Shown here: positions 1 through 44,999 of the stretch, piece after piece
How the letters are laid out: each line of letters opens with the position of its first letter
Position numbering within the stretch: position 1 is the stretch's first letter
IMG/VR virus record: IMGVR_UViG_3300031454_000241
Span: 61-64,060 of that record
Origin: a virus
Taxonomy: Duplodnaviria; Caudoviricetes
Direction: 5' to 3' (one strand)
Length of the DNA: 64,000 nt
Translations under genes and position numbers: made by a program
Notes under the pieces: model-generated
What the model saw: only the letters and a program-made list of their open reading frames with translations
Told to the model about the DNA's origin: nothing
Databases searched by the model: none

Positions 1-430
1 GCCGGGACATGGCGGACCGACCGTCCGCGCCGGACCGAGGGGGCGGGCTCCCCTGTGGCCGGTGGACGCCGGATCGCTCTGGCACGGGACGGTCGTGTTC
101 GGGAGCCGATACTAACATAATGCGAGTGAAGTTGACTGGGACTAGCCCGTCACTATAACCCGTGGTGGAATCAGCATTCGCTCCATCGGCGGCGATGTGG
201 GATGGGCATGAATAGGCTTGATAGACGCATCGTTGCACCCATCAGTAGTAGCCCGGTTATTCGTCGAAACAGGGGAGTCGAACAATAACGAGTCGGCGAT
301 TGTCGGCCCCGACAATAAGACGCAACGAGACCTCGGGCAACCGGCCCGCCCGTAACGGGCTCCGGCTCCGAGGTCTTCGTTGCGCAAGCTCATACGGTAG
401 GCGCCGATCAAGGACCGAGACCAGCCGCGG

Positions 431-503
431 GGCCACCGGCAGGAATCGAACCTGCAACCCGAAGATTAAAAGTCGACTGCTCTGCCAGTTGAGCTACGGT
501 GGC
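431..503 (-). tRNA. tRNA-Lys(UUU), atypical: 2 mismatches in anticodon stem, C discriminator, no encoded CCA
   Basis: Reverse complement folds as a cloverleaf: acceptor GCCACCG/CGGTGGC, D arm GCTC-AACTGGCA-GAGC, loop CTTTTAA (anticodon TTT at 468-470), T arm GCAGG-TTCGATT-CCTGC. Anticodon stem GTCGA/TCTTC has T-T and C-T mismatches. Confidence 0.9.
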
Positions 504-2209: not shown

Positions 2210-2238
2210 TTGACACCGTGTAGCGGTATAGCTACACT
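2210..2238 (+). promoter_or_regulatory. Sigma70-type early promoter TTGACA-N17-TACACT with an overlapping palindromic operator
   Basis: TTGACA 2210-2215, TACACT 2233-2238; inverted repeat GTGTAGC-N6-GCTACAC 2218-2237; TGTAGCGGTA repeated at 2219 and 2238. Confidence 0.85.
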
Positions 2239-2284: not shown

Positions 2285-2647
2285 ATGACCCTCACGACCG
2301 GGAAGCAGTTTGCGGACACGCCCAATCGCTCCCTGACCATCACGGTCGCGCCGGTCGCTGCGGTGCCGGGCGGGTTCCGCGTCTACGTCCACACCGGCTT
2401 CGAGGTGGTGTTGGCGCTCAAGGTCTGGGGCGACAACCTCCAGCCGGTGGCCGGTGGGTACGTCGATCTGGAGGACCTGCTGCTGGCGGTGATGGGCGGC
2501 ACACGGCAGCTCCGTCCCTACCGAAGGGGCGGACACAGTGATCGGACGCCGCGCTGTCGGGTGTGTGGCCGGGAGTTGCGAGACGAGGCGAGTGTCGCGG
2601 CGGGAATTGGACCGGACTGTCTGGTCAATGAGCAGGAGGCGGCATGA
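2285..2647 (+). CDS. Phage protein with C-terminal DUF6011-like zinc motif
   Basis: CRVCGRELRDEASVAAGIGPDC motif; AGGAG RBS. Confidence 0.75.
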   Translation: MTLTTGKQFADTPNRSLTITVAPVAAVPGGFRVYVHTGFEVVLALKVWGDNLQPVAGGYVDLEDLLLAVMGGTRQLRPYRRGGHSDRTPRCRVCGRELRDEASVAAGIGPDCLVNEQEAA

Positions 2648-3147
2648 TCGCTTTGACACAGGATTGGCAGCGGATTCTCGACGGCATCAACGGGCGCGTT
2701 GTCAAGACTGGCTCTGACAGCTGGCAACCGCACGGTCCCATCGTCCAGCGGATCGAACGAGTGATCGAAGGGCGCGGACAGCTCTCTCCGGCAAGTGTTC
2801 ATATCGAGGGAAGCGATGGGCCAGTCATGGTCCGGTTCGCTGCGGCGCTGGAGATTACGGATTCGTTCAGCGGGTCGTTCATTTTCCACCGGTCATACAA
2901 CAGCAGGGTGCCAGCTGAGGAATACACCGACGTAGTCGCCGACACCGTGGTAACTGCGCGTCAGGCCGAGATTCTCGCCGGAGTCGTTCGCAACCTGAAG
3001 CGGGTGGTTGCATCGGCCGATTACGCGCCGACTACGGAACGCGTGACAGACATCGTGAGTGACCTCGCCGGACTGCATGACGAGGTCAGTCAGATCGCCG
3101 ATGACCTGACTCGGATGGTGGGTCGCATTCGGGATGCAGGACTCTAG
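2644..3147 (+). CDS. Hypothetical early protein
   Basis: ATGA-coupled 167 aa ORF. Confidence 0.65.
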   Translation: MIALTQDWQRILDGINGRVVKTGSDSWQPHGPIVQRIERVIEGRGQLSPASVHIEGSDGPVMVRFAAALEITDSFSGSFIFHRSYNSRVPAEEYTDVVADTVVTARQAEILAGVVRNLKRVVASADYAPTTERVTDIVSDLAGLHDEVSQIADDLTRMVGRIRDAGL

Positions 3148-3155
3148 GAGGCAAC

Positions 3156-3434
3156 ATGAGCGACCAGCCGATCTACGGTCCTCACGGTACACGGGACCAC
3201 ATTGCTGACTCCATCCTTGACCGGCTCACCCGCGCCAACTGGTCAGCCGACGCCATTGACGAGGCGATTGGTGACTACGCCGCTGACACGACGGCCTGGG
3301 ATCAGGCCCAGTCATATCACCGGGCGGATGACTTTCGGCGTGGCTTGCGGATGCTGACGGCCATCCGTGACGAAGGGATGGACCGCGAGGCGTTCCGCCG
3401 CCGATTCGTCAATCGGGAAGGGAGCGTGAGATGA
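3156..3434 (+). CDS. Hypothetical early protein
   Basis: GGAGG RBS, 92 aa. Confidence 0.65.
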   Translation: MSDQPIYGPHGTRDHIADSILDRLTRANWSADAIDEAIGDYAADTTAWDQAQSYHRADDFRRGLRMLTAIRDEGMDREAFRRRFVNREGSVR

Positions 3435-3700
3435 GCGACATCATCGGCGCGGCAGCCGAGGTCATTTACGACGGGACGACGACTAACCGGGTCGCCGACT
3501 TCGACGACCTTAGCCCGAAAGAAGGCACGCGCTACCGGGCCATCGCCGTGAAGGTGCTCCGGGCAGTGCGCATCACCGAGCTGGATGAATTGCGTGGCCG
3601 TATCCGGGAGCTGGAATCCACCGTGGAACACAAGCAGTCGATCATCGAGGATCTGGAGTTCGACGCGCGACACATCCGGGAGCAGAACTATGGCCACTGA
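3431..3700 (+). CDS. Hypothetical coiled-coil protein
   Basis: ATGA-coupled; heptad-rich C-terminus. Confidence 0.65.
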   Translation: MSDIIGAAAEVIYDGTTTNRVADFDDLSPKEGTRYRAIAVKVLRAVRITELDELRGRIRELESTVEHKQSIIEDLEFDARHIREQNYGH

Positions 3701-3887
3701 TCCCCATCGCGATCACGTCCCCGACGACAACGCCTTCGAGCGCGACCTGATGGACCGGTTCCCCGCTTTCGGGCAGTGGCACGACCGTGAGCGGGAACGG
3801 GCGATCCGGGCCGGCCTGGTCCCGGATGGGCCGGTGGACGACGAGGACGACGATGAGCGGCTCTGGCCGGACGATCTCGCGAGTTAG
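3690..3887 (+). CDS. Small acidic hypothetical protein
   Basis: Start MATDPH overlaps the end of the previous gene. Confidence 0.55.
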   Translation: MATDPHRDHVPDDNAFERDLMDRFPAFGQWHDRERERAIRAGLVPDGPVDDEDDDERLWPDDLAS

Positions 3888-3897
3888 GAGACGCGCC

Positions 3898-4149
3898 GTG
3901 ACTGACTTGTCACTCATCGGCATCGCCATCGTCGCGTTCGTCGGGGCGGCCGTGTCAGCTGGTCGCTACGCCCACTACCGAGCCGATTGGGACACCATGT
4001 GGGATCGGACGATGTTCCGGCCCGACCCGGACGGCACCGTCGCACGGGAACGGCGCCGGTTGCTCGACACGGCCCATCGCTGCCTGTTTGGGGCGATGGG
4101 CGCCGCCCTCGTCGCGATCTGGTCGTTCGTCTTCGCCATGATGCCGTAG
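3898..4149 (+). CDS. Small two-TM membrane protein
   Basis: AGGAG RBS, GTG start, two hydrophobic stretches. Confidence 0.6.
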   Translation: MTDLSLIGIAIVAFVGAAVSAGRYAHYRADWDTMWDRTMFRPDPDGTVARERRRLLDTAHRCLFGAMGAALVAIWSFVFAMMP

Positions 4150-4159
4150 GAGGTGCCGC

Positions 4160-4492
4160 GTGAGCATGTACGTGTTGAATGAGGCAGGAGAGCCGGTACC
4201 CGCAGCCGATGGGCTCGCCTGGGCCCGGTGGTTTGAGACGAACCCGGACCGAACGGTGGCAGCCGATGACATCGATGTCAATGGCGCACGGTATCGCGTC
4301 TCAACGGTTTTCCTTGGGGTGGATCACGGGTACGGCGACGGCGACGGCGACCCGATCCTCTGGGAAACCTTGGTCTTTTCGGACGACATGTCGATTGATT
4401 CGACCATGCAGCGCTACGTGTCCCGATCCGAGGCGGTCATCGGGCACGCAGGGACGGTCGCGGCCCTGGAGCGAGGCGAGGTGCCAGAATGA
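4160..4492 (+). CDS. Conserved phage hypothetical protein (VSTVFLGVDH...LWETLVF family)
   Basis: GGAGG RBS; recurrent phage motif. Confidence 0.7.
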   Translation: MSMYVLNEAGEPVPAADGLAWARWFETNPDRTVAADDIDVNGARYRVSTVFLGVDHGYGDGDGDPILWETLVFSDDMSIDSTMQRYVSRSEAVIGHAGTVAALERGEVPE

Positions 4493-4686
4493 CCCACCCC
4501 ATCCCCTTTGACGATCTCGATGCCACGGACGCGGAACTTGCGTCCCTTGATGCACTAATCGCGTTGGGCGACGACGCGGACGCTGGCGCCTTTGCCGAAT
4601 GGTTTACGTCGACATCTCTCGTCGACTTCAAATCGTGGCTCCTGGCGCTGCCAGACGTGGACGATAACCTGCCGGAGGCAGCATGA
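4489..4686 (+). CDS. Small acidic hypothetical protein
   Basis: ATGA-coupled at both ends. Confidence 0.6.
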   Translation: MTHPIPFDDLDATDAELASLDALIALGDDADAGAFAEWFTSTSLVDFKSWLLALPDVDDNLPEAA

Positions 4687-5006
4687 TCGACAAACCCCTA
4701 TCGGATCTGATCCAGATCTATGCTGAATCCCACACCGCCTATGCCGTCGCGTCCGGCTCAACCACCGAGATGAACCGCAGACGGCTCCATGATAAACGGG
4801 GCGATGCCGCATCGGTCTGCCTGCTGGCGGTGATCACCGCGGACCGGCAGCGCGACCGGCTCCGGGTCGTGGTGCAGATGGCGTCGGGTCTGGAGGCCGC
4901 TGGCTATCCCGTCCCGGACCTGTTGACGAAGGCGTTGGCCGGCCTGCACGACAGCGACCTCGACGGGCCGATGCTGGCGCCAAGTGGTGAGACGGGGGCG
5001 GCGTAG
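4683..5006 (+). CDS. Hypothetical protein
   Basis: ATGA-coupled, 107 aa. Confidence 0.6.
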   Translation: MIDKPLSDLIQIYAESHTAYAVASGSTTEMNRRRLHDKRGDAASVCLLAVITADRQRDRLRVVVQMASGLEAAGYPVPDLLTKALAGLHDSDLDGPMLAPSGETGAA

Positions 5007-5258
5007 ATGGTGAGCAAGCGGATGATGAAGCTGATCCAGGACTATGCTGACATCTGCACCGTTTATGCGGTGATGATCGCCACAACTGACGACAAGGAGA
5101 ACCTTGAGCGACTTCGGCGGGAGCGCGGCGCAGCGGCCGGAGTTTGTCTCAATGCGATCACGGAATTGGAGGACGCACTGGCGCAGACCAGCGATTATGT
5201 CAAACATCTACGCAACACGATGACAGCCAACGGGCTCCATCCGGACACTGATCTCTAG
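5007..5258 (+). CDS. Hypothetical protein (N-terminus weakly paralogous to 4683-5006)
   Basis: Abuts the previous stop; shares LIQxYA...YAV pattern with the previous ORF. Confidence 0.6.
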   Translation: MVSKRMMKLIQDYADICTVYAVMIATTDDKENLERLRRERGAAAGVCLNAITELEDALAQTSDYVKHLRNTMTANGLHPDTDL

Positions 5259-5273
5259 GCACGGGGAGGCTGC

Positions 5274-5525
5274 ATGACAATCCGAGAGGAACGTCGCGCC
5301 ATTGTGGCCGTGATTTCAAGGTGCGATCAACTGGGCTGGCGACGTGACGCCCTGATCACCCTGCACGACAGCCTGACCCCGGTGAGCCGCGACCCGAATG
5401 AACAGCGGCTTCGGGCGGTACAGGCGTACGCTGTGTCGTCGATCCTGTGGCGGCGGATCACCAGCTTCGACGGAGCAATGGCCCTGTACGGGATCGGTGG
5501 GCAAGACGAGAGGGTGGCCGCATGA
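5274..5525 (+). CDS. Hypothetical protein
   Basis: GGAGG RBS; ATGA-coupled to the ligase. Confidence 0.6.
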   Translation: MTIREERRAIVAVISRCDQLGWRRDALITLHDSLTPVSRDPNEQRLRAVQAYAVSSILWRRITSFDGAMALYGIGGQDERVAA

Positions 5526-6580
5526 GTCTGCACGATGATCTCGCGCCACTGGTGGACGACCGTTACCTGGCCCGGCAGAAGCACCCGGAGTACGATCTGT
5601 GGCTCTACAACTACACCCAGAAGACGCAGTTCAACAAACACTGGACGCCGCTGACCCTGATGGCGCGCGGTCTCATTCTGGATGCCAACGGCGACATCGT
5701 GGCACGGCCTTTCCCAAAGTTCTTCAATTGGTCCGAGATGCCGCCGGGCTGGCAGCCGTCATCGCCGCTGACCGGACTCCAGGCGAAGATGGACGGATCG
5801 CTCGGCATCCTCTACTGGACGCCCGATGGTCTGCCCAGCATCGCGACTCGCGGATCGTTCGTCAGCCAACAGGCGCAGCACGCCACCGGCGTCTTGCGTG
5901 AGCGGTACGTCGATCTGCCGTGGCGAGACGATGAGACGTACCTGTTCGAGATCATCTACCCCGGCAACCGGATCGTGATCGACTACGGCCAGCAGGACGA
6001 TCTGGTGCTATTAGCCGTGCGTGGTACCGCCACTGGGACGGAGCATCAGTTGCCAGATTGGTTCCCGAATCGCGTCGAGCAAACCCGTTGTGTTGACCTG
6101 GATGCGGCGATGGGTAATTTGGCCGCTTTGCCCCGCAATACCGAGGGCATCGTGCTGTTGTTCGAGGACGGCAGCCGGCTCAAGATGAAGACCGACGAGT
6201 ACGTGCGGCTCCACCGCCTGCTGACCGGCTTGACGCCGCGACGCATCTGGGAACTGGTCTCTACCGGCGTTGGCATTGACGAGCTACTCCGACACATCCC
6301 CGAGGAGTTCGCAGATTGGGTCAGGACGACGGCCCGAGGCCTCCATCATGTCCATGAGGACACGTTTACCCGCGCCTATCAGGATGCCGTGTCCGCAGAG
6401 CAGGAACATAGCGACGATCGTGGCGCCATCGCCCGCGCCATCCAGGACAACCCGCTCCGGTCGCTGATCTTCCTGATCCTTGACGGCAAGGACATCGACC
6501 AGCCGGTCTGGCGGATGATCCGGCCCGAGCACAGCGTCCCGTACACCGCCGATCCCGACGAGCAGCAGGTGGCCGCATGA
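5522..6580 (+). CDS. T4 Rnl1 (RnlA)-like RNA ligase
   Basis: LYNY, ARGLILD, RPFPKFFN, motif I KMDGSLG, IATRGSF, TYLFEII, EGIVL, KMKTDEY; C-terminal helical domain. Confidence 0.9.
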   Translation: MSLHDDLAPLVDDRYLARQKHPEYDLWLYNYTQKTQFNKHWTPLTLMARGLILDANGDIVARPFPKFFNWSEMPPGWQPSSPLTGLQAKMDGSLGILYWTPDGLPSIATRGSFVSQQAQHATGVLRERYVDLPWRDDETYLFEIIYPGNRIVIDYGQQDDLVLLAVRGTATGTEHQLPDWFPNRVEQTRCVDLDAAMGNLAALPRNTEGIVLLFEDGSRLKMKTDEYVRLHRLLTGLTPRRIWELVSTGVGIDELLRHIPEEFADWVRTTARGLHHVHEDTFTRAYQDAVSAEQEHSDDRGAIARAIQDNPLRSLIFLILDGKDIDQPVWRMIRPEHSVPYTADPDEQQVAA

Positions 6581-6864
6581 CCTCCCAAGTAGATGCGACG
6601 GTTCAGGAGTCGCTGCATGAGCAGGTAGTTGAAACTCCGGTCTTTCGTCTCTATGTTGTGGCACCGCAACCACGACCATTCGAGTCATCAGTGGACGAAC
6701 CAACGCATATCACTCTGGCGTCCATCGTCTACGCGGCCACGTCGAAGTCACAAGCGATACGGTTCCTGAAGACCCTACACGACGCTGGTGCCAAGCCGCA
6801 TGTTTGCTACAGCATCACCGTCAACTCGTTTGAGACCGAGCCAACTTTCTATGGGCTCTGGTAG
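6577..6864 (+). CDS. Hypothetical protein
   Basis: ATGA-coupled. Confidence 0.55.
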   Translation: MTSQVDATVQESLHEQVVETPVFRLYVVAPQPRPFESSVDEPTHITLASIVYAATSKSQAIRFLKTLHDAGAKPHVCYSITVNSFETEPTFYGLW

Positions 6865-6872
6865 GAGGCCGC

Positions 6873-7139
6873 ATGACGAAGACACTCCGGACCAGATTGC
6901 TGTCGGAGATCGCCCGTGATCCCGGAACCCTGAATCCCGGCACGTCGTGGTACGGACTGGCAGCCATCTTCAAGCCGGAGATGAGCGACGCCGAGGTGCT
7001 CACCCGCGCTCGGCATGAGGTCGAGTGGCGGATCGACGCGGCCCGCAGCGACGAGGAGATGGTGCAGCAATTGCGGGATGAGGCAGCACGATTGGCGGCG
7101 GCGATGGCGGTCGTGACCGAGACAGGAGACTCGGCGTGA
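6873..7139 (+). CDS. Hypothetical protein
   Basis: GGAGG RBS. Confidence 0.6.
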   Translation: MTKTLRTRLLSEIARDPGTLNPGTSWYGLAAIFKPEMSDAEVLTRARHEVEWRIDAARSDEEMVQQLRDEAARLAAAMAVVTETGDSA

Positions 7140-7339
7140 CGGGAGAAGAACAGTTAGATTGGAATCAATGGCCGATCCCGGACCGGTGGCCGGTGATGCA
7201 GCACCGGGAGAGGTATCAGGATCGACAGGGACGATGGCACTATCTGGATGAACCGAAACAGATGCCTCCGGTCCCGATACCGCTGCCTCAGGACCTTATC
7301 GACAAGGTCAAGGCGATCATCGATCGGCATCATCAATAG
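7136..7339 (+). CDS. Small hypothetical protein
   Basis: GTGA-coupled. Confidence 0.55.
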   Translation: MTGEEQLDWNQWPIPDRWPVMQHRERYQDRQGRWHYLDEPKQMPPVPIPLPQDLIDKVKAIIDRHHQ

Positions 7340-7353
7340 ACAGGAGACGCACA

Positions 7354-7989
7354 ATGGGCACGACCGAACTGACCATCGTCGCGGCCCCGGCGATGAAGAT
7401 CGCTGACATTACCTCCGAGCTGAACCGGGCATGGGATGACACCGGTCAACGCGTCCCCCGGTTCGTCGTGTTGACCCGGCTGATGGGTTCGCTCTATGGG
7501 GCGGATGCCTTTTTGCGGATCGCCGCTGCGTCCACGCTGATGGACTACGGACTCGACAACCAGACCGGCGAGATTCTGCGCTGGAACGATCCCGAGGGGC
7601 GCCGGTCTCCGTGGGCCAACGGGCCGTGGCGGAACCCGCCGGGCGTCGGTCGGGCCATCGTCCACATGACCGATCCGGGCGATGTCACCGCCATCAACCG
7701 CGACGGCATCAGCATCGGCATCGCTGGGCAGTACGACGATGCCGTCTCAGACGACGCCTACGGGGCGCTGGTGGCGCTCGTGGCGCATCACGCCAGCAAA
7801 GCCGGGGTGCCGCACACGACGCCCTACAGCGACGACCTGGTTCACCCGGACACCGGCGTCTCGTTCGTCCTCTGGCACTCGACGTTCTGCGGCGATCTGA
7901 AGCCCGACCCCGGCCATGTCGTCAAGGAGCTGACGGGGCGGCTAGTGCAGGACGTGCGGCGGGTGATGCGTGAAGGCGGGTCGGCATGA
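7354..7989 (+). CDS. Amidase_2-fold protein lacking the first Zn-ligand His and the catalytic Glu (pseudo-amidase)
   Basis: Aligns by eye over its length with the amidase domains at 9012-10001 and 12359-15352, but has VVLT for VVLH and GISIGIAG for GISIEIAG. Confidence 0.85.
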   Translation: MGTTELTIVAAPAMKIADITSELNRAWDDTGQRVPRFVVLTRLMGSLYGADAFLRIAAASTLMDYGLDNQTGEILRWNDPEGRRSPWANGPWRNPPGVGRAIVHMTDPGDVTAINRDGISIGIAGQYDDAVSDDAYGALVALVAHHASKAGVPHTTPYSDDLVHPDTGVSFVLWHSTFCGDLKPDPGHVVKELTGRLVQDVRRVMREGGSA

Positions 7990-8477
7990 CGATGGATGAC
8001 CGCGTAGATGCGGCACTCGCGGCCCTGCCCTATGACCACTGGCGAAGTTATATTGATCCGTGCGGAAGTGGGACGCTGGAAATAACCACGTGGCGCCGGA
8101 TCATCCGGACGGCCATTCAGGCGGCGGATCGGTGGGATCGCGATCATCCGGTCCCGGCTGATTACACGTCCCATATGGTCACGATGACCCCTGCCGAAGT
8201 GCGGTCGATGAGTCGGTCGCCAGATGCATCTGATAAAGGAGGAAGTATGACCTCAGAGCAGCACATCGTGCTCTTGCAACGGATCATCATCGAGGCTGCC
8301 AATGAAGGCGGAGCCGATGCGCGTATTTCGATCAGGCAGGCACTTGGGCACCATTGGCCGGACGACATGACACCCGCCGATTTCATGGGGCCTGAATGGC
8401 CTCCTCGTCCGATAGACCCTGACGAGATCGACCGCGAAGCGCTAATGAATATCACCAAACGACATCAGACCAACTGA
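7986..8477 (+). CDS. Hypothetical protein (possible internal start at 8248)
   Basis: ATGA-coupled; internal GGAGG-ATG. Confidence 0.55.
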   Translation: MTMDDRVDAALAALPYDHWRSYIDPCGSGTLEITTWRRIIRTAIQAADRWDRDHPVPADYTSHMVTMTPAEVRSMSRSPDASDKGGSMTSEQHIVLLQRIIIEAANEGGADARISIRQALGHHWPDDMTPADFMGPEWPPRPIDPDEIDREALMNITKRHQTN

Positions 8478-8616
8478 AAGGTGGCGCCATGACTCCGGAC
8501 CAGCACATCGCCGCCTTGCAGCGCATCGGTGTTTGACCGGGACGGCAACCGGATCGGCGTCATCAATGAGGACGGCATCATCGACGTCCAGCCGGTAAGG
8601 GATTGACGACATGACG

Positions 8617-8647
8617 ACAGCCCTGGCGAATTGCTCGCCAGGGCTGT
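8617..8647. terminator. Probable bidirectional terminator between the convergent early and late units
   Basis: Perfect 13-bp stem ACAGCCCTGGCGA/TCGCCAGGGCTGT, 5-nt loop. Confidence 0.75.
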
Positions 8648-8670
8648 TCTGTTGCGCTCAGTGTAGCCGG

Positions 8671-8949
8671 TCAGACGACGGGCGGCTTCTTGAAGATGGT
8701 CAATCCAGGTTTGGCGGCCTCAGCCCCGTTCTGGACAGCGGTCACGATCAGCGTGCTGAGGATGATGACGTACGGGACGTACTGGGGTGGGATGTCGGTC
8801 ACGATCTGGTCGATCAGCAGGGTCAAGCCACCGCCCGAAATCAACTGAAGCAGGGTCCTCGCGATCCGCTGCCAGAAATCCCGGGCCGTGGTGAGCTGCT
8901 GCTTGCCAGGATCGGTGACGGGAACGGCGACGTCAACGGTGTCGGTCAT
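8671..8949 (-). CDS. Holin (two TM helices)
   Basis: 92 aa, two hydrophobic segments, basic C-terminus, last gene of the lysis cassette. Confidence 0.75.
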   Translation of the reverse strand: MTDTVDVAVPVTDPGKQQLTTARDFWQRIARTLLQLISGGGLTLLIDQIVTDIPPQYVPYVIILSTLIVTAVQNGAEAAKPGLTIFKKPPVV

Positions 8950-9011: not shown

Positions 9012-10001
9012 TCAGGCCGCGGCCTCTCCACTGACCTCTCGCAGCTTGCCGCCTTCGGCGATCACCGTGAATCCATCCGAGAACCGGAATACACGAGCAT
9101 TGCCGGATTGAGTGACCTCGCTCAATTGCGGCCAGACGCCCAAACGCTTGCCCCGCGCCAGCCACAGCTTCGTCAGGATGCCGTTCGGATCGAAACTGAA
9201 CGTCATCGCCTTGTCGCCGTTGGACGTGGCTTTGCCGAACCAGCCCTGCACCATCGCGAGGTTGACACCGGGCGGCAACAGCAGTGCGGTCGGCGGGGCA
9301 GCCGGGACAGGAGTGGGTACCGGCGCGGGCTTGACGACGACCGGCGGGGTGGCGGCAGTCTCGACCGCGGCGGTCTGAGCCGCCTTGAGGATGGCGCGGA
9401 CCCGAACGATCAGCGACTCGGTGCGGGCGCGGACGGCGGCGTTGGGGCAGGTGGTGCGCTTCTCACCGTTGAACTCCCCGTGCCAGTAGACGAACGTGAC
9501 GCCGGTCTTCGGGTTGATCGGCCACACGTCGTGCGGGATCGCGTTGTAGTCCGCCCAGAACGCGACGAGGTTCGCCATGTTCTCGAAGGCCACGTCGCTG
9601 ACGGGGGACGATCCCCCGCCCGCCACCTCGACGGAGATGCCGTCCCGGTTGATCGCGTAAACCCCGAGCTTGGCAACCAGCGCCGGAGCATCGCCGGACG
9701 GCAACTGGTAGGGGCCACTTGCGTAGCCGGACTGGCGCGATAAGGGATCGGTCCAGCGGACGATCCGGCCACCGACGTTATCGAGGCCATAGTCGGTCCG
9801 GGCACGGGCGCGGGCATCGCCGAGGAAGTAGCCCTCGGTGCCCATCAGGCCGGACCACCCGGCACCGCCGTAGGTGCTGTGCAGGACCACGAATAGGGCC
9901 CGGCGGGGGCCTAGATCGTCCCAGGCGGTGTTCCAGCCGGGGTCCATATCGTGATGCTCCACGAGTGGGGCCGTGACGTTGCCGAAGGTGAGGGTAGTCA
10001 T
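9012..10001 (-). CDS. Endolysin, N-acetylmuramoyl-L-alanine amidase (Amidase_2) with Pro/Ala linker and C-terminal domain
   Basis: FVVLH, GISVE, YWHGEF, TTCP Zn/catalytic residues intact. Confidence 0.85.
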   Translation of the reverse strand: MTTLTFGNVTAPLVEHHDMDPGWNTAWDDLGPRRALFVVLHSTYGGAGWSGLMGTEGYFLGDARARARTDYGLDNVGGRIVRWTDPLSRQSGYASGPYQLPSGDAPALVAKLGVYAINRDGISVEVAGGGSSPVSDVAFENMANLVAFWADYNAIPHDVWPINPKTGVTFVYWHGEFNGEKRTTCPNAAVRARTESLIVRVRAILKAAQTAAVETAATPPVVVKPAPVPTPVPAAPPTALLLPPGVNLAMVQGWFGKATSNGDKAMTFSFDPNGILTKLWLARGKRLGVWPQLSEVTQSGNARVFRFSDGFTVIAEGGKLREVSGEAAA

Positions 10002-10738
10002 GGCATGATGTCCTTTCGGTCGATCACGAGGACGCACTCCCCGTCCTCTGCAAGCAGTCGTTCAATGAGTGAGTACGGGATCATCGTGACGGGCCAGCCG
10101 CGTTCATTCGGATGCCAGTCCCGATCACTCAATCCCCACGAGTTCGGCGTTCCGAAGGCCTCGTACCGATCACTGACGCGGTTGAGGGCGTAGGCGTGCC
10201 CACCCGCGAGCCGCCCGAGATCGGCGGTCCCCTCGGGCAACCAGTACATCGTTCCGCGCTTCACCGGCTCGAACATCCGCTCGTACCAGTTCGAGCCCAT
10301 CACGCAGACCTTGCCGGCCTGAATCGCGGCGCGGATGTCGGTGATGCTGCGGGCCCATTCGTTGCGCTCGACACCAAGGGCGGGGTCTGGCTGACTGGCC
10401 TTGCCGCCGATGATGGGTACCGGGCCAATGTCGCGCAGCACGTCGTAGGCGACCCGGAGGTACGTGCCGTCCTCGTTCGGGATGCTGTCGCGATTCTTGC
10501 ACTGCCGGTACAACCAGATGGGGTCAAAGGTGATGCGTTCGGACAGGGATCGCTCCTGCGATGACGAATAGCCGACGCACATGGAGGTCGCCCCCTGGTC
10601 GTAAATGCGACGCCAAGTGCTGCTGAGACCGATGGTGCGCTCGCAGACCGCCGGGGGCGCGGCCAGTCGGCGCATCGGATACTTGTCGACATGATCAAAG
10701 TCACTTGGCACCAGTCTCCCTAATGAACGAACGGTCAT
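9998..10738 (-). CDS. Papain-like (C1) cysteine peptidase
   Basis: DQGATSMCVGY (Gln...Cys), GGHAY (His), NSWG (Asn) catalytic motifs. Confidence 0.85.
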   Translation of the reverse strand: MTVRSLGRLVPSDFDHVDKYPMRRLAAPPAVCERTIGLSSTWRRIYDQGATSMCVGYSSSQERSLSERITFDPIWLYRQCKNRDSIPNEDGTYLRVAYDVLRDIGPVPIIGGKASQPDPALGVERNEWARSITDIRAAIQAGKVCVMGSNWYERMFEPVKRGTMYWLPEGTADLGRLAGGHAYALNRVSDRYEAFGTPNSWGLSDRDWHPNERGWPVTMIPYSLIERLLAEDGECVLVIDRKDIMP

Positions 10739-12358: not shown

Positions 12359-15352
12359 TCATATCGGTTCGACCCCAACCGTGCCGGTATCCGAACTGAT
12401 GACGCGATAGCCGTCCTCAAACCCAAAGACCAGCGACGTCTTGACGCCGGTGGTCAGGGTGCCGGTGTTACCAATGTTGGTAAAACTGTCATCGTTCTGA
12501 ACGACCGTCTTGAGCTGTGGCCATTTGCCGGTGGCCGTACCACGCGCCGCCCAGACGCCCGATATTGGTCCCGTGCTGTCATATTGGAAGGTCCTTGTGG
12601 GGTTGTCCCCGCCTTCGCCGATCAGCGTCACCGAGCCGAACCGTCCCTGGAGCTGAGCGATCGTCACGCCGGGCGGCACGGTCAGGACCGGCGGCCGCGT
12701 CGGGGACGGCGTGGCGGGGTTGGGGAGCGCCGGCGTCGTGGCCGACCCGCCCGAGCCCTGGTAGGACTTGAGGATCACCCGGACGACTTCGATGAGCTGC
12801 GTGGTGTAGTTCTTGACCGTCGCGCCGGGACAGTCCTTGCCCCCGTTGAACTCGGAGTGCCAGTAGATGAAGGTCAGGCCGGTCCGGGGACTGATCGGCC
12901 ACTGGTCCCACGGGATCTTGCTCTGGTCGGCCCAATAGGCGATGAGCTTCGCGAGCTGGTCCTTGGCGCCAGCGCTGACCGGATCGCTATAGCCGCCGGC
13001 GATCTCGATGGAGATACCGTCGCGGTTGATCGCGGAGATGCCGTACTTCGCCACCAGCGCGATCCCGTCGCCCGGCGGGCTGGTCCACGGTCCCGATGCC
13101 CACGGCGACATAGTGCCGAGCGGGTTGGTCCACCGCATGGTCTCGCCACTGAGATGGTCCATGCCGTAGTCGGTCCGGGCACTGAAGCGAGCATCGGTGC
13201 GGAAGTAGGAGTCGGTGCCGTAGAGGGAGCCGAGCATTCGGTGCAGCACGATGAACATGGCCTTGCGCGGCCCCAGGTCGTCCCAGGCGGTGTTGAGCGA
13301 GCCGGAGATGTCCCGGACGCTGACCGGCGGCAGCGGCACCTTGCCGTAAACCAGCCCGGACGCCGGAGCGGGCGCGGCGGGGGCGCCGGCCGGGGGGTTG
13401 CGGTTCATGATCTGGCAAACGATGTCGATGTAGCGTTGGGTGTCGTTCTCGAACGACGGCGCGTAGACGTGCATCAGGTCCGAGATCGTGACGGCGTTCT
13501 TGTACGGCCCAGTGGTGCTGAGCAACCGGGTGCGCCAGTCCGCGACGCAGGCGGCGAAGGTCGGGTAACGGAACCAGGTGTGGGCGCCGTTGGCGTAGCC
13601 CGATGCGAGCGAGAGGAAGTTGTGGCTGTTCGCGTAGCTACCCGTCTGAGCAGGTGAGTAATACGTCGAGTGCTGCTGCTCGTGCTTGGAGATGGCCAGC
13701 ATCAGCCGGCCGAGGTCCCCGGCGGCCGCCAGCAAGTCGGCGGCTCCGGAGACCAGCGGCGACCCGGCGACGGTGCGGAACTCGGTCTGCGCGGAACCGA
13801 CCGTCGTGCTGCCGGAGCCCCGCCACGGGGTCGACCCCGTCACGGTGGCGGGGCCGACCGGCGCTGTCGGGGCGCCACTATCGACGTAGGGCGCGATCCG
13901 GCGGGCACCGAGGTAGCGGGGCCGGAAGTACGTGCTGAACGGATCATCGACCCTGAGGCCGATTTGCTCGTTGAACGCGTTGACCATCTGGCCGGGTCGA
14001 ATGTAGATGCCGACATGGGAGCAGTCGCGGTAGCCGTTGTCGTCGGTGTCGTAGCAAAGGATGTCGCCGGGCCGCAGGTTGGCTTCCGCCACCGCGGTGC
14101 CGGTCGTCCACTGGGCCTGTGAGCCGGGGCTGATCGTGACACCCCCGGCGACGCGCCAGCAGTACGATGTCAAGCCGGAGTTGTGAACGACGATCCCGTC
14201 CGCGACGAAGTTGCCACCGTCTGCGACTTCGAGATCGTAGGTATCCGCCTCCCCAGCCGGGCCAATGCCGAGGATCGGCTTGATCGTCCACGAATAACCG
14301 TCCTGTTCAGCTATCTCGTGAATCTGTGTATGGGTTTGATAAAGCGTGTGATTCGCATCCCGCCCCCCACTCCATACGCAGAATGAGTGAAGTGGCCGGG
14401 CATGCTTGACCAACTTGCCCTTGATCGTGATGGGCTTGATCCGTTGATGGGTACTGACATTGCTGACGGCATCCCCCAGCAGGACATGAAGCATCCGAAC
14501 CTCTCCAATGAGGTCAGAGGACGACGACGCATAGGTTCGTTCGCCATGCTTCTTTGTATTACCGGGGATACTCCCGTCGGCCTCACAGTACCCGTCAAGG
14601 AATGCCCGCTGCGCAGCGGCACTCCATCCCCAGACGCACTTGGGAACTCGCTTCTCGTGGGCGTGAACATCCAGACCCATTGCGACGAACGGTCGCGCAA
14701 GTGTCACTGCTGATGTCGCCAGACCATAGGAATCACCAAAGGTCGGTGTGCAGCCGCTCAGTCGGTTGATGATCGCGGCGGCGCGGTCACGCGTTTCGCC
14801 GTAGACGCAGATGCGGAGATGATATTGACCAATCTTGTTCACTCCAACATTGCCGTCACCGATGATGAGCCCCAGCAGCCAGGCGTAGTCGAGGTCGGTA
14901 TCGTTGATCTGCTCATTGTTGGCGTGGCGCATGACGACGATCCTGTCGCCTCGGGACAGTTCGTCAAGGCGACACCACTCGAATACGTGCTCGTTTCGGC
15001 GTTGCCCCTTCCCCTTGATCGGCAGCTTGTTCCCGGTCTTGCGGACGCGCAGGAACGGATGATTGGCGGACGCGGTGATCGCTCGTCCCTGTGTCCGGAG
15101 TCGGAAGACCGGCTGATGCTTGGACTTCCATGCCGCCGTGACTGGCCTCGACTCAAACCGTCCATCAATCCATGACCACACCATGTCTCCGGTGGTGATC
15201 TCATCCATGCGCTTGGTCATGTCAGGGCCGCTGACCAACGTGTCGCCAGTCAGGCAGCAATCGAAGGATGACCCCCCTTTGGCTCCCCAAACGTAGGGCT
15301 TGCCAATATGCGTGCGGGCTTCAGCGGCAACCAGATCGCCGGGGTTCGCCAT
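12359..15352 (-). CDS. Multidomain lysin: NlpC/P60 (intein-split) + glucosaminidase-like domain + Amidase_2 + C-terminal domain
   Basis: GKPYVWGA..FDC|SG, LRPGDIL, SHVGIY (NlpC/P60); SKHE...YAP (lysozyme-like, GH73-type); VLH/SIE/WH/DCP (amidase); GGAGG RBS. Confidence 0.85.
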   Translation of the reverse strand: MANPGDLVAAEARTHIGKPYVWGAKGGSSFDCCLTGDTLVSGPDMTKRMDEITTGDMVWSWIDGRFESRPVTAAWKSKHQPVFRLRTQGRAITASANHPFLRVRKTGNKLPIKGKGQRRNEHVFEWCRLDELSRGDRIVVMRHANNEQINDTDLDYAWLLGLIIGDGNVGVNKIGQYHLRICVYGETRDRAAAIINRLSGCTPTFGDSYGLATSAVTLARPFVAMGLDVHAHEKRVPKCVWGWSAAAQRAFLDGYCEADGSIPGNTKKHGERTYASSSSDLIGEVRMLHVLLGDAVSNVSTHQRIKPITIKGKLVKHARPLHSFCVWSGGRDANHTLYQTHTQIHEIAEQDGYSWTIKPILGIGPAGEADTYDLEVADGGNFVADGIVVHNSGLTSYCWRVAGGVTISPGSQAQWTTGTAVAEANLRPGDILCYDTDDNGYRDCSHVGIYIRPGQMVNAFNEQIGLRVDDPFSTYFRPRYLGARRIAPYVDSGAPTAPVGPATVTGSTPWRGSGSTTVGSAQTEFRTVAGSPLVSGAADLLAAAGDLGRLMLAISKHEQQHSTYYSPAQTGSYANSHNFLSLASGYANGAHTWFRYPTFAACVADWRTRLLSTTGPYKNAVTISDLMHVYAPSFENDTQRYIDIVCQIMNRNPPAGAPAAPAPASGLVYGKVPLPPVSVRDISGSLNTAWDDLGPRKAMFIVLHRMLGSLYGTDSYFRTDARFSARTDYGMDHLSGETMRWTNPLGTMSPWASGPWTSPPGDGIALVAKYGISAINRDGISIEIAGGYSDPVSAGAKDQLAKLIAYWADQSKIPWDQWPISPRTGLTFIYWHSEFNGGKDCPGATVKNYTTQLIEVVRVILKSYQGSGGSATTPALPNPATPSPTRPPVLTVPPGVTIAQLQGRFGSVTLIGEGGDNPTRTFQYDSTGPISGVWAARGTATGKWPQLKTVVQNDDSFTNIGNTGTLTTGVKTSLVFGFEDGYRVISSDTGTVGVEPI
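14180..15256 (-). mobile_element. Intein (359 aa) with LAGLIDADG homing endonuclease, in the NlpC/P60 FDC/SG motif
   Basis: Block A CLTGDTLV, block B TASANHPF, LLGLIIGDG and FLDGYCEADG, block F TYDLEV, block G NFVADGIVVHN followed by Ser+1. Confidence 0.92.
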
Positions 15353-41887: not shown

Positions 41888-42105
41888 GCCGCGCCTCCTT
41901 CCGGTGCCGGCGCTTCCCGCCGGATGGTGTCGCGCAGGTCGTCCAGCAGGGCCATGAGCTCGTCGGGCGTTCCTACAAGGAGGAGTTCACCGTGCTGCCA
42001 TTGCAGCGAGCGCCCCGTTTCAATCCGTGTCACAACCCATTCGCCTTCGCGCTGTATCCCAATGACGAAGGGATAGTCAGCAGGCTCTCGCAGGACGTGC
42101 ATCAT
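41884..42105 (-). CDS. Small hypothetical protein
   Basis: TGATG/ATGA-coupled. Confidence 0.55.
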   Translation of the reverse strand: MMHVLREPADYPFVIGIQREGEWVVTRIETGRSLQWQHGELLLVGTPDELMALLDDLRDTIRREAPAPEGGAA

Positions 42106-43331
42106 CAGGCGATGCCCAGCGCGGTCAGGTTCAGGACCGTGATCTGCGCGAAGTCCACGGTGCCGGTGCCCGTGCCGGCCTGGAGCTCAATGGCGACGGT
42201 CGTCGTTCCCCCCGGCACCACGCCCTCGATGGCGAAGACGTTGCCGGGCTGCTGGTCCTGCGTGATGGACGTCGCCGGCGACAGGTACAGCGTCGGACCG
42301 ATGAAGCGGATGCGCGGGCTGGCGACGCTCCCCAGCCCGGCGACGGTGGACCGCACCCGCCCCATAAACCGGAGCTTGTCGCCGACCGCCCATGATCCCG
42401 CTGGAAGGTTGGCGGTGACGTACGGCGCCGCCGCCCCGTTGCCGACGACGCGCTGCCAGTTGCCCTTGATCGCCGCGTCGGCCACCAGCGACGCCGTGCC
42501 GCCGGTCGGTGCGGCCAGCGCCCACGAGTTGGCCACGCCGTCGGCGTTGGTGTCGCCGATGAAGACGCCGTTGGGCGTGAGGTTCGTCAGCTCGCCAACG
42601 CCCGACGCCAGCAGGGGCGCCACCATGCCCGGCTGCGTTGTCATCACGTCGGCGGCACGCTGGCCCAGCAGCTTCGCGCCCGCTTCGTTGGGATGGAGGC
42701 CGTCCGGGGAGTAGGCCGGGAGGATGCCGCCGGTCGCGGGGTCGATCAGGACCGGGTAGAAGTCGATCAGCAGCCAGCCCCGTCGGGCGGCGAGGTTGGC
42801 GATCCGGTAGTTGATCTCCGGGACCAATGTGCCGCTCGCGTTGCGCGGCAGGAGCGTCGTCAGAACCGGCGTAACCCCACCGGCTAACAGGGCGTTGCCG
42901 ATGCCCTCGATGCTGGCGACGATCTGGGCGGGCGTCCGGGTCGTGACGCTGTTGGTCCCGCCGTGGACGATGCAGTAGTCCACGCCCAGCGGCAGGACGT
43001 CCGTAGCGACGCGGGCGGCGATCTGGTCGATCGTCTGGCCGGCGACCCCGGCGTTGCCGCCCTTGACCATCCGGCAGCGTCCGCCCGAGAGCAGACCCAG
43101 CCACGTCAGCCACGAGGTATTGCCGAACACCCCGACGGCGCTGGTGCCGTTGCCGATGGTGATGCTGTCGCCCAACGCTGCGACCCGATTGCCGCGCCGC
43201 CCGGACTGCGCACGCTGGGCTGCCACCTGCGCCGGGCTGAACGGCGCTCCCGTCGCCGGGTCGGTCTGGTAGTCGGTGATCGTCTGGATGACCTGCGCGG
43301 CCGACAGACCGGGTTTGGGAAGAAATGGCAT
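42105..43331 (-). CDS. SGNH/GDSL hydrolase with C-terminal jelly-roll (carbohydrate-binding-like) domain
   Basis: Blocks GDSIT, GVAG, GGTNS, DGLHPN. Confidence 0.85.
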   Translation of the reverse strand: MPFLPKPGLSAAQVIQTITDYQTDPATGAPFSPAQVAAQRAQSGRRGNRVAALGDSITIGNGTSAVGVFGNTSWLTWLGLLSGGRCRMVKGGNAGVAGQTIDQIAARVATDVLPLGVDYCIVHGGTNSVTTRTPAQIVASIEGIGNALLAGGVTPVLTTLLPRNASGTLVPEINYRIANLAARRGWLLIDFYPVLIDPATGGILPAYSPDGLHPNEAGAKLLGQRAADVMTTQPGMVAPLLASGVGELTNLTPNGVFIGDTNADGVANSWALAAPTGGTASLVADAAIKGNWQRVVGNGAAAPYVTANLPAGSWAVGDKLRFMGRVRSTVAGLGSVASPRIRFIGPTLYLSPATSITQDQQPGNVFAIEGVVPGGTTTVAIELQAGTGTGTVDFAQITVLNLTALGIA

Positions 43332-43346
43332 GTCAACTCCTATCCG

Positions 43347-44999
43347 TTACGGCTGGATCGTCCCGCGATTGAAGAGCGTCTCGGCCACGGCATCCCGCGC
43401 CGCCTGATCCTTGAGCAACGCCGTGATCGTGTCATCGTCCTCGCCCATGATTTCCAGTTGCTTACGCGACAACCCGGCGTAGCCCACGATCCGGTTGAGC
43501 TTCATCAACTGCACACGCTCGTACTCTTCGCTCCCCTCGACCGGGGCGATCTCGTCTAGCAAGGCGCGCTTTGTGATAGCCAGATCGATGGCTCCACGGC
43601 CATACGAATCGAGCCCGACCGGGACGGAGGTCGGGTCCCACGTCACCTTGCCGTCCACCCCCGTGACCTTGACAGTCTCGATGATGCGGAACATGGCCTG
43701 CGCCCGGGTCAGGTTGCCACTGTCGTCGTCCCACGCGCCGTTATTTGCCCGGTGGCAGCCGATGGAGACCAGCATCTGCATGATCTTCACAAGGGCGGCG
43801 TCGAGGTTGCCCATCGTCTCGTCGAACCGGGCCCGGACGTCGCCGATCATGGCCTCGGCGCCCGGCCCCGTGACCTGCGACATGCCGCGGAGCTCCTGAT
43901 CCATCACGATCTCGGGCAAGTCCGACTCGACCTCGGCCACGATGGCGGCCATCCGGGCCTCGGCGCCGGCGAAGTCCATCGCGCCCAGGAGCCCGTCGGA
44001 GCGGCCGTTCTCGCCGTTCCAGTGCAGGATGCGGGTGCCGCCCTCGGTCGCTTCGACGGTCGCGGTGCCGCCCGGCGTCGTAGGGCGCGTCTCGGTGATG
44101 ACCTGGAGTTTGCCGTTGGCGCCGTAGAACACCCGCGGCTCGTTCAGCGTCCGGGCCAGCCGGGCCTCCACGAACGCGGCGATGGCGTTGATCCGGTCCA
44201 GCTTCGGCAGCACCGACGCCACCAGCGACACGCCGAACAGCCGGGAGCCGCGCAGCCGCGACACCACCCAGACGCCGGGGCAGAACCCGTAGCCGTGCCG
44301 GTCGGTCCGTTCCAGCTTGTCGTCGCGGTACCAGCGGGTGGTCTGGTTGTCGACCTCCTTGCGGAACGCGTAGGAACCGCGGTCATCATTCGTCGTGTAG
44401 GCCAGCACGTACCGCTTGACGTCCCCGCGACTGTTCAGGGCGATGTCGGCCACCTGCCAGAGCGGGATCACCTCGGCCGTGACCTTGCGCCGTTCGGGCG
44501 GGCCGGACAGGTCGTCGTGGATCTCGACGAACTGCGAGCCGAGCAGCTGCGTGCGGGCAATCAGGGCCGGCAGGACCGACCGGAAGTTGCTCCACGTCAG
44601 CGCCTGGAACGCCGCCTCCACCACCAGCGGCCGCGCCTGCCAGACGTCATCCGGCACCGGGATCAGATTCGGCGTGCCGTCGGGCAGCGAGCGCCCGTCC
44701 TCGGTCCACGTACCACGATAGAGATGCCCGGCATACCAATCCACTGCCCGCTGCACCGGGTTGTAGACGGGCCTGATCCACTTCGGGAGATTGTTGGATC
44801 GTTTATAGTCCTCCCAGTACGCCCAGTCGTTTTCGTCGTAGGCACGGTTATCGGCCCAGCTTTCGAGAACGGTCCACTGCTGACGCCGGGCCGCGAACAC
44901 CGCCGCGACCGAGGTCTCGGGACTCTCGACAATGGCATCGCTCTTGCGCAGGGCGCCGCCGAGCGTACGGGCCGTGGAGAGCGTTCCCTCGAAGGCCAT
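43347..44999 (-). CDS. Portal protein
   Basis: 550 aa after TerL; YNPVQRAVDW, LPKLDRIN; synteny. Confidence 0.8.
   Translation of the reverse strand: MAFEGTLSTARTLGGALRKSDAIVESPETSVAAVFAARRQQWTVLESWADNRAYDENDWAYWEDYKRSNNLPKWIRPVYNPVQRAVDWYAGHLYRGTWTEDGRSLPDGTPNLIPVPDDVWQARPLVVEAAFQALTWSNFRSVLPALIARTQLLGSQFVEIHDDLSGPPERRKVTAEVIPLWQVADIALNSRGDVKRYVLAYTTNDDRGSYAFRKEVDNQTTRWYRDDKLERTDRHGYGFCPGVWVVSRLRGSRLFGVSLVASVLPKLDRINAIAAFVEARLARTLNEPRVFYGANGKLQVITETRPTTPGGTATVEATEGGTRILHWNGENGRSDGLLGAMDFAGAEARMAAIVAEVESDLPEIVMDQELRGMSQVTGPGAEAMIGDVRARFDETMGNLDAALVKIMQMLVSIGCHRANNGAWDDDSGNLTRAQAMFRIIETVKVTGVDGKVTWDPTSVPVGLDSYGRGAIDLAITKRALLDEIAPVEGSEEYERVQLMKLNRIVGYAGLSRKQLEIMGEDDDTITALLKDQAARDAVAETLFNRGTIQP

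Follow-up and report, generated by a model that had tools for sequence, protein, structure and literature searches.

A conserved, probably non-catalytic Amidase_2 protein derived from the endolysins of a group of tailed phages

The subject of this report is a small gene in a 64,000-nucleotide stretch of DNA from a virus of the Caudoviricetes (positions 61 to 64,060 of IMG/VR record IMGVR_UViG_3300031454_000241), hereafter the window, which covers nearly all of the 64,060-bp provirus record and has a G+C content of 59-70%. The gene (7354-7989, plus strand) encodes a stand-alone protein of 211 amino acids that resembles the amidase domains of the phage's own cell-wall hydrolases and is referred to here as the pseudo-amidase. 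Our analysis indicates that this protein is probably a soluble, cytoplasmic and non-catalytic member of the Amidase_2 family, descended from an endolysin of this phage group and maintained by purifying selection for a new, binding-based role. Because its zinc site is broken, binding rather than cutting is the most likely activity of the protein. The open reading frame (ORF) itself is well formed, with a G+C content at third codon positions (GC3) of 0.85, as is typical of coding sequence in the window, and a Shine-Dalgarno motif, AGGAG (7342-7346, plus strand), lies 7 nt 5' of the ATG at 7354.

An earlier note on this DNA, made from the sequence alone, had described the protein as a full-length paralogue of both late amidases of the phage, and homology searches bear out that description. 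The pseudo-amidase aligns with a 341-aa amidase at 38% identity (BLASTP, E 1e-35) and with the Amidase_2 domain of a 997-aa lysin (12740-13339, residues ~672-871) at 44-46% identity with an E value of about 1e-49 (44% and 3e-49 in tblastn), and the AWDD, DYG..RW..P, AINRDGIS and TG..F..WH motifs named in that note are all found. Identity to the lysins of related contigs is 51-53%. The score of the pseudo-amidase against the Pfam Amidase_2 model is 22.4 bits, under the 26-bit cut-off, whereas the paralogous domains of the two lysins clear it with 27.4 and 31.6 bits; its sequence similarity to members of the Amidase_2/peptidoglycan recognition protein (PGRP) superfamily (PF01510) is significant. 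As also noted earlier, and as the alignment and the ORF map agree, the pseudo-amidase lacks the C-terminal domain that is common to the 341-aa and 997-aa proteins, and its gene lies on the opposite strand. Two features that mark an endolysin, namely a wall-binding domain and a place with the holin in the late cassette, are absent. The isoelectric points of the pseudo-amidase clade (4.7-5.7, against a family median of 5.9) are unremarkable.

Structure prediction places the protein in the Amidase_2/PGRP fold, which the earlier note had assumed. An AlphaFold2 model based on a 52-sequence alignment reached a mean predicted local distance difference test (pLDDT) of 92.3 and a predicted template modelling score (pTM) of 0.91, and its structural matches extend over the whole domain: AmpD (Z 16.6, root-mean-square deviation 2.2 Å over 156 residues), PlyL (Z 15.7), XlyA (Z 15.2) and several PGRPs (Z 12-13.6). 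A search of PDB sequences with the family profile gave no match even at E 10, and the equivalence of residues to those of solved structures was drawn from the family alignment, motif order and fold match rather than from residue-level structural superposition.

To define the family, an exhaustive HMMER search was performed, yielding 307 representatives at E <= 0.001, and most of the 150 that were listed are multidomain lysins. In an alignment of 155 family sequences, the state was read at the first zinc-ligand His, the catalytic Glu, the second His, the Lys and the Cys of the active site, and 121 of the 155 carry the combination H-E-H-K-C. The pseudo-amidase departs from it at three positions. 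The codon ACC at 7474-7476 (plus strand) encodes Thr41 in place of the first zinc-ligand His, which both paralogues carry within a V-L-H motif and which is present in 146 of the 151 representatives with a residue there; Thr occurs solely in the pseudo-amidase clade. The codon GGC at 7717-7719 (plus strand) encodes Gly122 where the paralogues carry the catalytic Glu of an I-S-[IV]-E-[IV]-A-G motif, and Gly122 is shared by all four known orthologues, the window's gene included. Both replacements had been read correctly in the earlier note. At the third-ligand position, Asp185 is likewise found in the pseudo-amidase clade only, and the paralogues have Cys. The other half of the active site (7876-7908, plus strand) is retained, comprising His175 (the second zinc ligand), Lys183 and Asp185, with two clade-invariant residues, Cys179 and Asp181, lying between His175 and Asp185. 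The outcome is a PGRP fold with a broken zinc site, in which two members of a His/His/Cys-or-Asp triad (His175 and Asp185) accompany Thr41, and Gly122 replaces a catalytic Glu of the type represented by E90 of PlyL and E317 of Ami2B.

These changes differ in the weight they carry. In the crystal structure of the Ami2B domain of mycobacteriophage DS6A, zinc is bound by His251, His364 and Asp376, assisted by Glu317 and Lys374, and the zinc ligands of Amidase_2 enzymes are essential according to work cited in that paper (bioRxiv 10.1101/2025.01.22.634383). Since an Asp with a Lys two residues upstream is the normal Ami2B arrangement, the Cys185Asp change would not be inactivating by itself. The change predicted to abolish activity is His41Thr; Glu122Gly reinforces it but, taken alone, is weaker evidence of inactivity, because a separate clade of the family lacks the Glu and keeps its zinc ligands. 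The earlier note was thus right that the Glu has been lost, but gave this loss too much weight as a sign of catalytic death. In addition, T7-type amidases use Tyr and Lys, not Glu (PMC6361986), and residues of this type, Tyr65 and Lys183, are still present in the pseudo-amidase. On a broader scale, 63 positions are conserved in the catalytic family at a threshold of at least 75%; in the pseudo-amidase clade, 34 of them are kept, 21 vary and 8 are consistently replaced (H41T, T63M/I, S89N, D98V/P, E122G, P162L, E177T/A and C185D). Judged from the alignment, these eight replacements have the appearance of a concerted erosion around the active site of an otherwise intact scaffold, as is typical of pseudoenzymes, and amidase activity has probably been lost.

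The separate clade without the Glu deserves mention in its own right. It comprises 13 rows of the tree and holds 11 Glu-less representatives (P0007, P0057, P0074, P0084, P0087, P0102, P0110, P0120, P0122, P0131 and P0152), in which the Glu position is occupied by Ser, Thr, Gln, Ala, Met or Gly. The zinc ligands are kept in every one that covers those positions, P0007 being truncated at its C-terminus, and several of these representatives are short stand-alone proteins. These proteins may retain activity through a different mechanism, or they may constitute a further non-catalytic lineage that arose independently. P0007, considered as a candidate orthologue of the pseudo-amidase, was rejected, as it retains the His together with a Glu-to-Gly change, comes from a fragmentary bacterial context and belongs to this Glu-less clade.

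Orthologues of the pseudo-amidase were detected by a word-indexed search that returned seven matches, three of which are full-length genes on short Logan contigs with identities of 81, 74 and 59%. Thr41, Gly122 and Asp185 are present in all of them. The Thr41 codons of the four orthologues are ACC, ACG, ACA and ACC, and this use of three different codons implies that Thr was kept while its codon changed synonymously. Pairwise Nei-Gojobori estimates gave ratios of nonsynonymous to synonymous substitution (dN/dS) of 0.18-0.29 at dS values of 0.63-1.36, and the excess of synonymous changes is highly significant (binomial p < 1e-7). With values of 0.11-0.58 for the amidase domain of the neighbouring catalytic lysins, the pseudo-amidase is equally or more constrained, and no other gene of its plus-strand block is as well conserved, most of its neighbours not being common to these phages. 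The earlier note had asked whether the H-to-T and E-to-G changes persist in homologues under purifying selection, and would have been overturned by a decaying recent duplicate; both changes are kept, and the low dN/dS shows purifying selection, which does not fit such a duplicate.

The relatives are held by three Logan runs with nearby accession numbers (SRR22405855, SRR22405871 and SRR22405872). One of these runs, SRR22405855, also contains a 1.7-kb contig (L008) with a truncated copy of 95 aa (862-1149), which shows 56% identity over residues 9-85 and keeps Thr41; in this lineage the gene is lost or broken. No further member of the dead clade was detected when GTDB species genomes, IMG/VR and JGI metagenomes were scanned. 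Neither the pseudo-amidase nor its plus-strand neighbours matched any family in PHROGs, PADLOC or NCBIfam. A tblastn search of 50,697 phage records with the pseudo-amidase, the 341-aa lysin and a 550-aa protein of the head region found nothing, and the phage group appears to be without a sequenced relative among those records. The 550-aa protein (43347-44999, minus strand) has no PHROG or NCBIfam match either.

The origin of the gene was traced in a tree built by maximum likelihood from 82 domain sequences. In it, the four orthologues group as a single clade with a support of 99 in the Shimodaira-Hasegawa-like approximate likelihood-ratio test (SH-aLRT), and this clade is nested in one of 14 rows (support 95) that otherwise consists of the lysin amidase domains of this phage group, both window paralogues included. 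Its sister group is formed by the lysins of contigs L004 and L005, with weaker support (81). In each of the four phages the gene lies where the plus-strand block ends and faces, in convergent orientation, the genes for the holin-like protein and the amidase. The simplest history is a single inverted local duplication of the catalytic domain of an endolysin, after which the wall-binding domain and catalysis would have been lost and the product then conserved. The gene had been described in the earlier note as lying far from the lysis cassette, which does not hold, since the end of its ORF is separated from the holin-like gene by 682 bp and from the gene of the 341-aa amidase by about 1 kb, with a single ORF and a hairpin in between. 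This position beside the cassette may be a trace of origin and not evidence of a lysis function. Early expression of the block, as proposed in the earlier note, is a tentative reading of a sigma-70-like promoter (2210-2238) and of gene content.

The surroundings of the gene are less stable than the gene itself. In L005, the genes at 2981-3379 and 4020-4517, which flank the orthologue, have in common a C-terminal stretch of ~60 aa with 54% identity, and the first 80 aa encoded by the gene upstream of the orthologue are 76% identical to the first 80 aa of the product of the ORF that lies downstream of the pseudo-amidase in the window (7986-8477). Such similarities resemble the scars that recombination would leave around a mobile pseudo-amidase module. 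A conserved adjacent partner gene was sought as well and rejected, the neighbours being mosaic between phages.

With respect to location in the cell, no signal peptide or membrane segment was found in the pseudo-amidase (maximum 19-residue Kyte-Doolittle hydropathy 1.07), and its N-terminus is part of the domain, as in cytoplasmic paralogues, so that an export signal, as expected of a PGRP-type binder, is not seen. Lacking a hydrophobic N-terminus, a membrane segment and a wall-binding domain, the protein is predicted to be soluble and cytoplasmic. The absence of a signal peptide or membrane segment also makes an extracellular role of the PGRP type, or a role in superinfection, unlikely. Of the other roles suggested in the earlier note, that of a muropeptide sponge, of a dominant-negative lysis-timing factor or of a defence modulator may each apply.

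What the protein might bind can be approached from the parts of the domain that have been preserved. Tyr65, His175 and Asp185 are invariant among the orthologues and Lys183 is kept in three of the four, and the block R76-W92 is invariant among them except for residue 81. As a tentative but plausible guess, the remodelled former substrate groove would bind a ligand of the N-acetylmuramic acid (MurNAc)-peptide type. Non-catalytic PGRPs illustrate that the fold can act as a pure binder, and in the cytoplasm MurNAc-peptide ligands occur only as precursors and turnover products. The ligand would then be a cytoplasmic one, such as a peptidoglycan precursor or turnover product, whose binding could influence the synthesis of the wall or prepare it for lysis; expressed from an operon convergent with the lysis cassette, the protein might in this way adjust the wall metabolism of the host or the moment of lysis. 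The active-site residues of the Ts2631 amidase are required for lysis and dispensable for peptidoglycan binding (PMC6361986).

Several observations weigh against a non-catalytic binder of this kind. The inactivity of the pseudo-amidase is inferred from its sequence, and Tyr65, Lys183 and two of the three zinc-ligand positions are retained; the clade-invariant Cys179, Asp181 and His164 could in principle serve as a rebuilt metal site. Replacement of the acidic residues D98, E122 and E177 close to the site may have altered the specificity of the groove to the point that a muropeptide is no longer accommodated. Mature peptidoglycan is out of reach for a cytoplasmic protein. Ten residues that are invariant and specific to the clade (P96, R100, Y136, H146, D160, D161, L162, H164, V169 and D181) would, as far as their pattern in the alignment can tell, fit a new protein-binding surface equally well. 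Finally, the gene is represented by four full-length members together with the truncated L008 copy, which implies that it is dispensable in at least one lineage.

Other explanations were weighed as well. It is possible, although we regard it as unlikely, that the dead amidase fold serves as a scaffold for a new protein-protein interface and that the protein is a regulator, with the phage's own lysins or a host protein of wall synthesis or transcription as possible partners. Docking on the lysins could keep them inactive until holin triggering, or could act in a dominant-negative manner. The ten clade-specific residues, which are rare in catalytic relatives and include the DDLxHP loop (160-165) and Y136 and H146 on the long helix, are consistent with such an interface, as are the loss of the three acidic residues (D98, E122 and E177) of the old site and the linkage to the lysis cassette kept in 4/4 phages; by analogy, T7 lysozyme, EnvC/NlpD and CwlM offer precedents. 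However, a surface elsewhere on the domain leaves the retention of Tyr65, His175 and Asp185 unexplained, a lysis-timing factor would be expected within the late cassette and not in a convergent operon, and none of the mosaic adjacent genes is conserved as a partner. In addition, no phage RNA polymerase was recognised in the 8/10 ORFs of more than 600 aa that were scanned, the 831- and 1756-aa ORFs of the tail block being left out. The scanned ORFs encode, among others, the helicase/methyltransferase, the primase-helicase, the terminase and the multidomain lysin, and an 887-aa tail-region protein without a match; as judged from these scanned ORFs, a target like that of T7 lysozyme is less likely.

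An enzyme that is still active is quite improbable. Such a protein would use a rebuilt metal site composed, for example, of His175, Asp185 and either Cys179 or Asp181, and would act on a cytoplasmic substrate like that of AmpD, which is the best structural match of the model. The K-x-D-P-G motif of the Ami2B His/His/Asp type, the remaining T7-type catalytic residues Tyr65 and Lys183, and the 13-row clade in which zinc ligands persist without a Glu, so that this residue is not universal, all fit continued catalysis. Yet the first zinc-ligand His, which does not vary in any family member outside the clade, is now Thr, a poor zinc ligand, and in Ts2631 substitutions in the catalytic core, including one of the equivalent His (H30N), substantially lower lytic activity (PMC6361986). 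The concerted loss of H41, E122, E177 and D98 also has the look of erosion rather than of a conservative swap. Least credible of all is a functionless duplicate of an endolysin in the course of decay, a fate that the truncated copy in L008 and the small size and rarity of the clade might suggest. It is contradicted by the dN/dS values and their significance, by a reading frame that is intact in four divergent phages with dS up to 1.36, by the synonymous turnover at Thr41, and by the good ribosome-binding site, the coding-typical GC3 and the high confidence of the AlphaFold2 model. A protein that binds instead of cutting accordingly stays our preferred interpretation, at the strength given above.

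Comparison with known systems helps to place the protein. Its closest relatives are the Ami2B-type domains of actinobacteriophage lysin A proteins (such as DS6A LysA) and the phage's own lysins, which are homologous, have the same fold and share with it the K-x-[C/D]-P-G motif, the second His, the Tyr, and the NRD, WNDP and ANGPW blocks. Unlike them, the pseudo-amidase lacks the first zinc-ligand His, the catalytic Glu, the wall-binding domain and a partner catalytic domain, and its gene lies outside the late cassette and on the other strand. Non-catalytic PGRPs (PGRP-SA, PGRP-LC/LE and mammalian PGLYRP1/3/4) share the fold, with the Z scores reported above, and are related by fold only (10-17% identity). 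In these proteins, an amidase has become a binder by losing a zinc ligand, and by analogy they may serve as a precedent for binding without cleavage; they are, however, secreted or receptor proteins of animals that have typically lost the Cys ligand, whereas the pseudo-amidase is a cytoplasmic phage protein that has lost the first His and the Glu. T7 lysozyme (gp3.5) is similar in being a small stand-alone phage Amidase_2 protein encoded outside the classical lysis cassette. It has a second, regulatory role as a binder of another protein, the phage's own RNA polymerase. In contrast to the pseudo-amidase, whose site is broken at Thr41 and Gly122, T7 lysozyme keeps its zinc site and its amidase activity.

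AmpD, an anhydro-MurNAc-L-Ala amidase, is cytoplasmic and single-domain and has Asp at the third-ligand position, but it is catalytically active, having both the His/His/Asp triad and the Glu, shows only 17% identity, and is a host recycling enzyme and not a phage gene. The same principle, a dead peptidoglycan-hydrolase fold kept as a regulator, appears to be embodied by the EnvC/NlpD dLytM factors and by mycobacterial CwlM, a cytoplasmic actinobacterial protein. These have other folds (LytM and Amidase_3) and are encoded by the host, and the likeness is one of analogy. In its probable mode of action the pseudo-amidase comes closest to non-catalytic PGRPs and to dead-hydrolase regulators, yet it is a member of neither group, being cytoplasmic, phage-encoded and derived from a lysin. 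No description of a stand-alone dead Amidase_2 paralogue in a phage was found in the full-text literature within the library searched.

The minus strand of the window forms one long run of genes that proceeds from replication (primase-helicase and helicase/methyltransferase) through the terminase and the head and tail genes to the cell-wall hydrolases, and is closed by a lysis cassette of three genes encoding a peptidase, an amidase and a holin-like protein. The peptidase (9998-10738, minus strand) belongs to a split lysin pair and matches phrog_16701 (E 7e-12). The 341-aa amidase (9012-10037, minus strand; Pfam Amidase_2, 27.4 bits) has a C-terminal wall-binding-like domain, and the His, Glu, His and Cys of its active site are all present in the alignments. 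Its true start is likely to be the ATG at 10001, which overlaps the upstream stop and yields a 329-aa form that is identical to family representative P0043. The holin-like protein (8671-8949, minus strand) has 92 aa and two hydrophobic segments (hydropathy 1.53), is encoded by the last gene of the late block, and has a counterpart with 77% identity at the equivalent relative position in L005. Upstream of the cassette lies the gene for the 997-aa multidomain lysin (12359-15352, minus strand), recognised from its translation, its paralogy and its Pfam matches (NLPC_P60, Intein_splicing, LAGLIDADG_3 and Amidase_2). An NlpC/P60 domain split by a LAGLIDADG intein is followed in it by a middle region, the Amidase_2 domain (12740-13339) and the C-terminal domain. 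In total, the phage has two complete amidase-type lysins and one dead copy.

The plus-strand block (2285-8477) consists of small genes, including those for a DUF6011 protein and an Rnl1-type RNA ligase, and converges on the lysis cassette, with the pseudo-amidase ORF as its penultimate gene. A consensus scan identified the sigma-70-like promoter (2210-2238, plus strand; TTGACA-17-TACACT, 10/12) 5' of its first gene. The block is closed by an ORF of 163 aa (7986-8477, plus strand), whose start overlaps the stop of the pseudo-amidase gene (ATGA) and whose product has no match in Pfam, PHROG, PADLOC or NCBIfam. Between the two convergent blocks, folding and sequence reveal a hairpin (8616-8648) of 14 pairs, 13 of them Watson-Crick and one a closing G-U, which is likely to be a bidirectional terminator. 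It has no clean T-run and was hence overlooked by a simple terminator scan. Seven further small ORFs of the plus-strand block and two small minus-strand ORFs at its left have no Pfam match, and none is repressor- or integrase-like.

Other features of the window touch on the biology of the phage and its host. A tRNA-Lys(UUU) gene (429-503, minus strand) lies near the left end of the window, and the Rnl1-type RNA ligase (5447-6580, plus strand; Pfam RNA_lig_T4_1, phrog_562) is encoded in the same block as the pseudo-amidase. Together, the two hint that the block carries genes of counter-defence or host takeover. In the region of the head genes, far from the lysis cassette, a 408-aa protein (42105-43331, minus strand) matches phage lipase/esterase families (phrog_6102, E 8e-30) and is a candidate LysB-like mycolyl-arabinogalactan esterase, in which case one would expect a mycolic-acid actinobacterium as the host.

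Endolysins have been intensively studied as enzymes and as antibacterials, but dead endolysin paralogues maintained by selection in a phage genome are undescribed in the literature as far as it was searched. The case is clean and testable, although the clade is small, with four full-length genes. In its broadest form, which we regard as rather doubtful at present, the proposal is that the pseudo-amidase represents a new class of phage pseudoenzyme, in which a dead copy of an endolysin domain, placed in a separate operon and retained in the cytoplasm, captures MurNAc-peptide precursors or docks onto lysins or the host wall machinery and thereby controls wall synthesis or lysis timing. If this were true, the protein would be a phage counterpart to CwlM and to dead hydrolase regulators of the EnvC type. 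A protein that binds wall precursors or lysins would, moreover, be a natural case of an Amidase_2 domain converted into a module for binding alone, with possible use as a muropeptide probe. Since a single phage combines two catalytic versions of the domain with a dead one, and orthologues can guide mutagenesis, the system is a favourable test case. Should the protein indeed bind wall precursors or lysins, it would add a new layer of control over lysis or host wall metabolism in actinobacterial phages.

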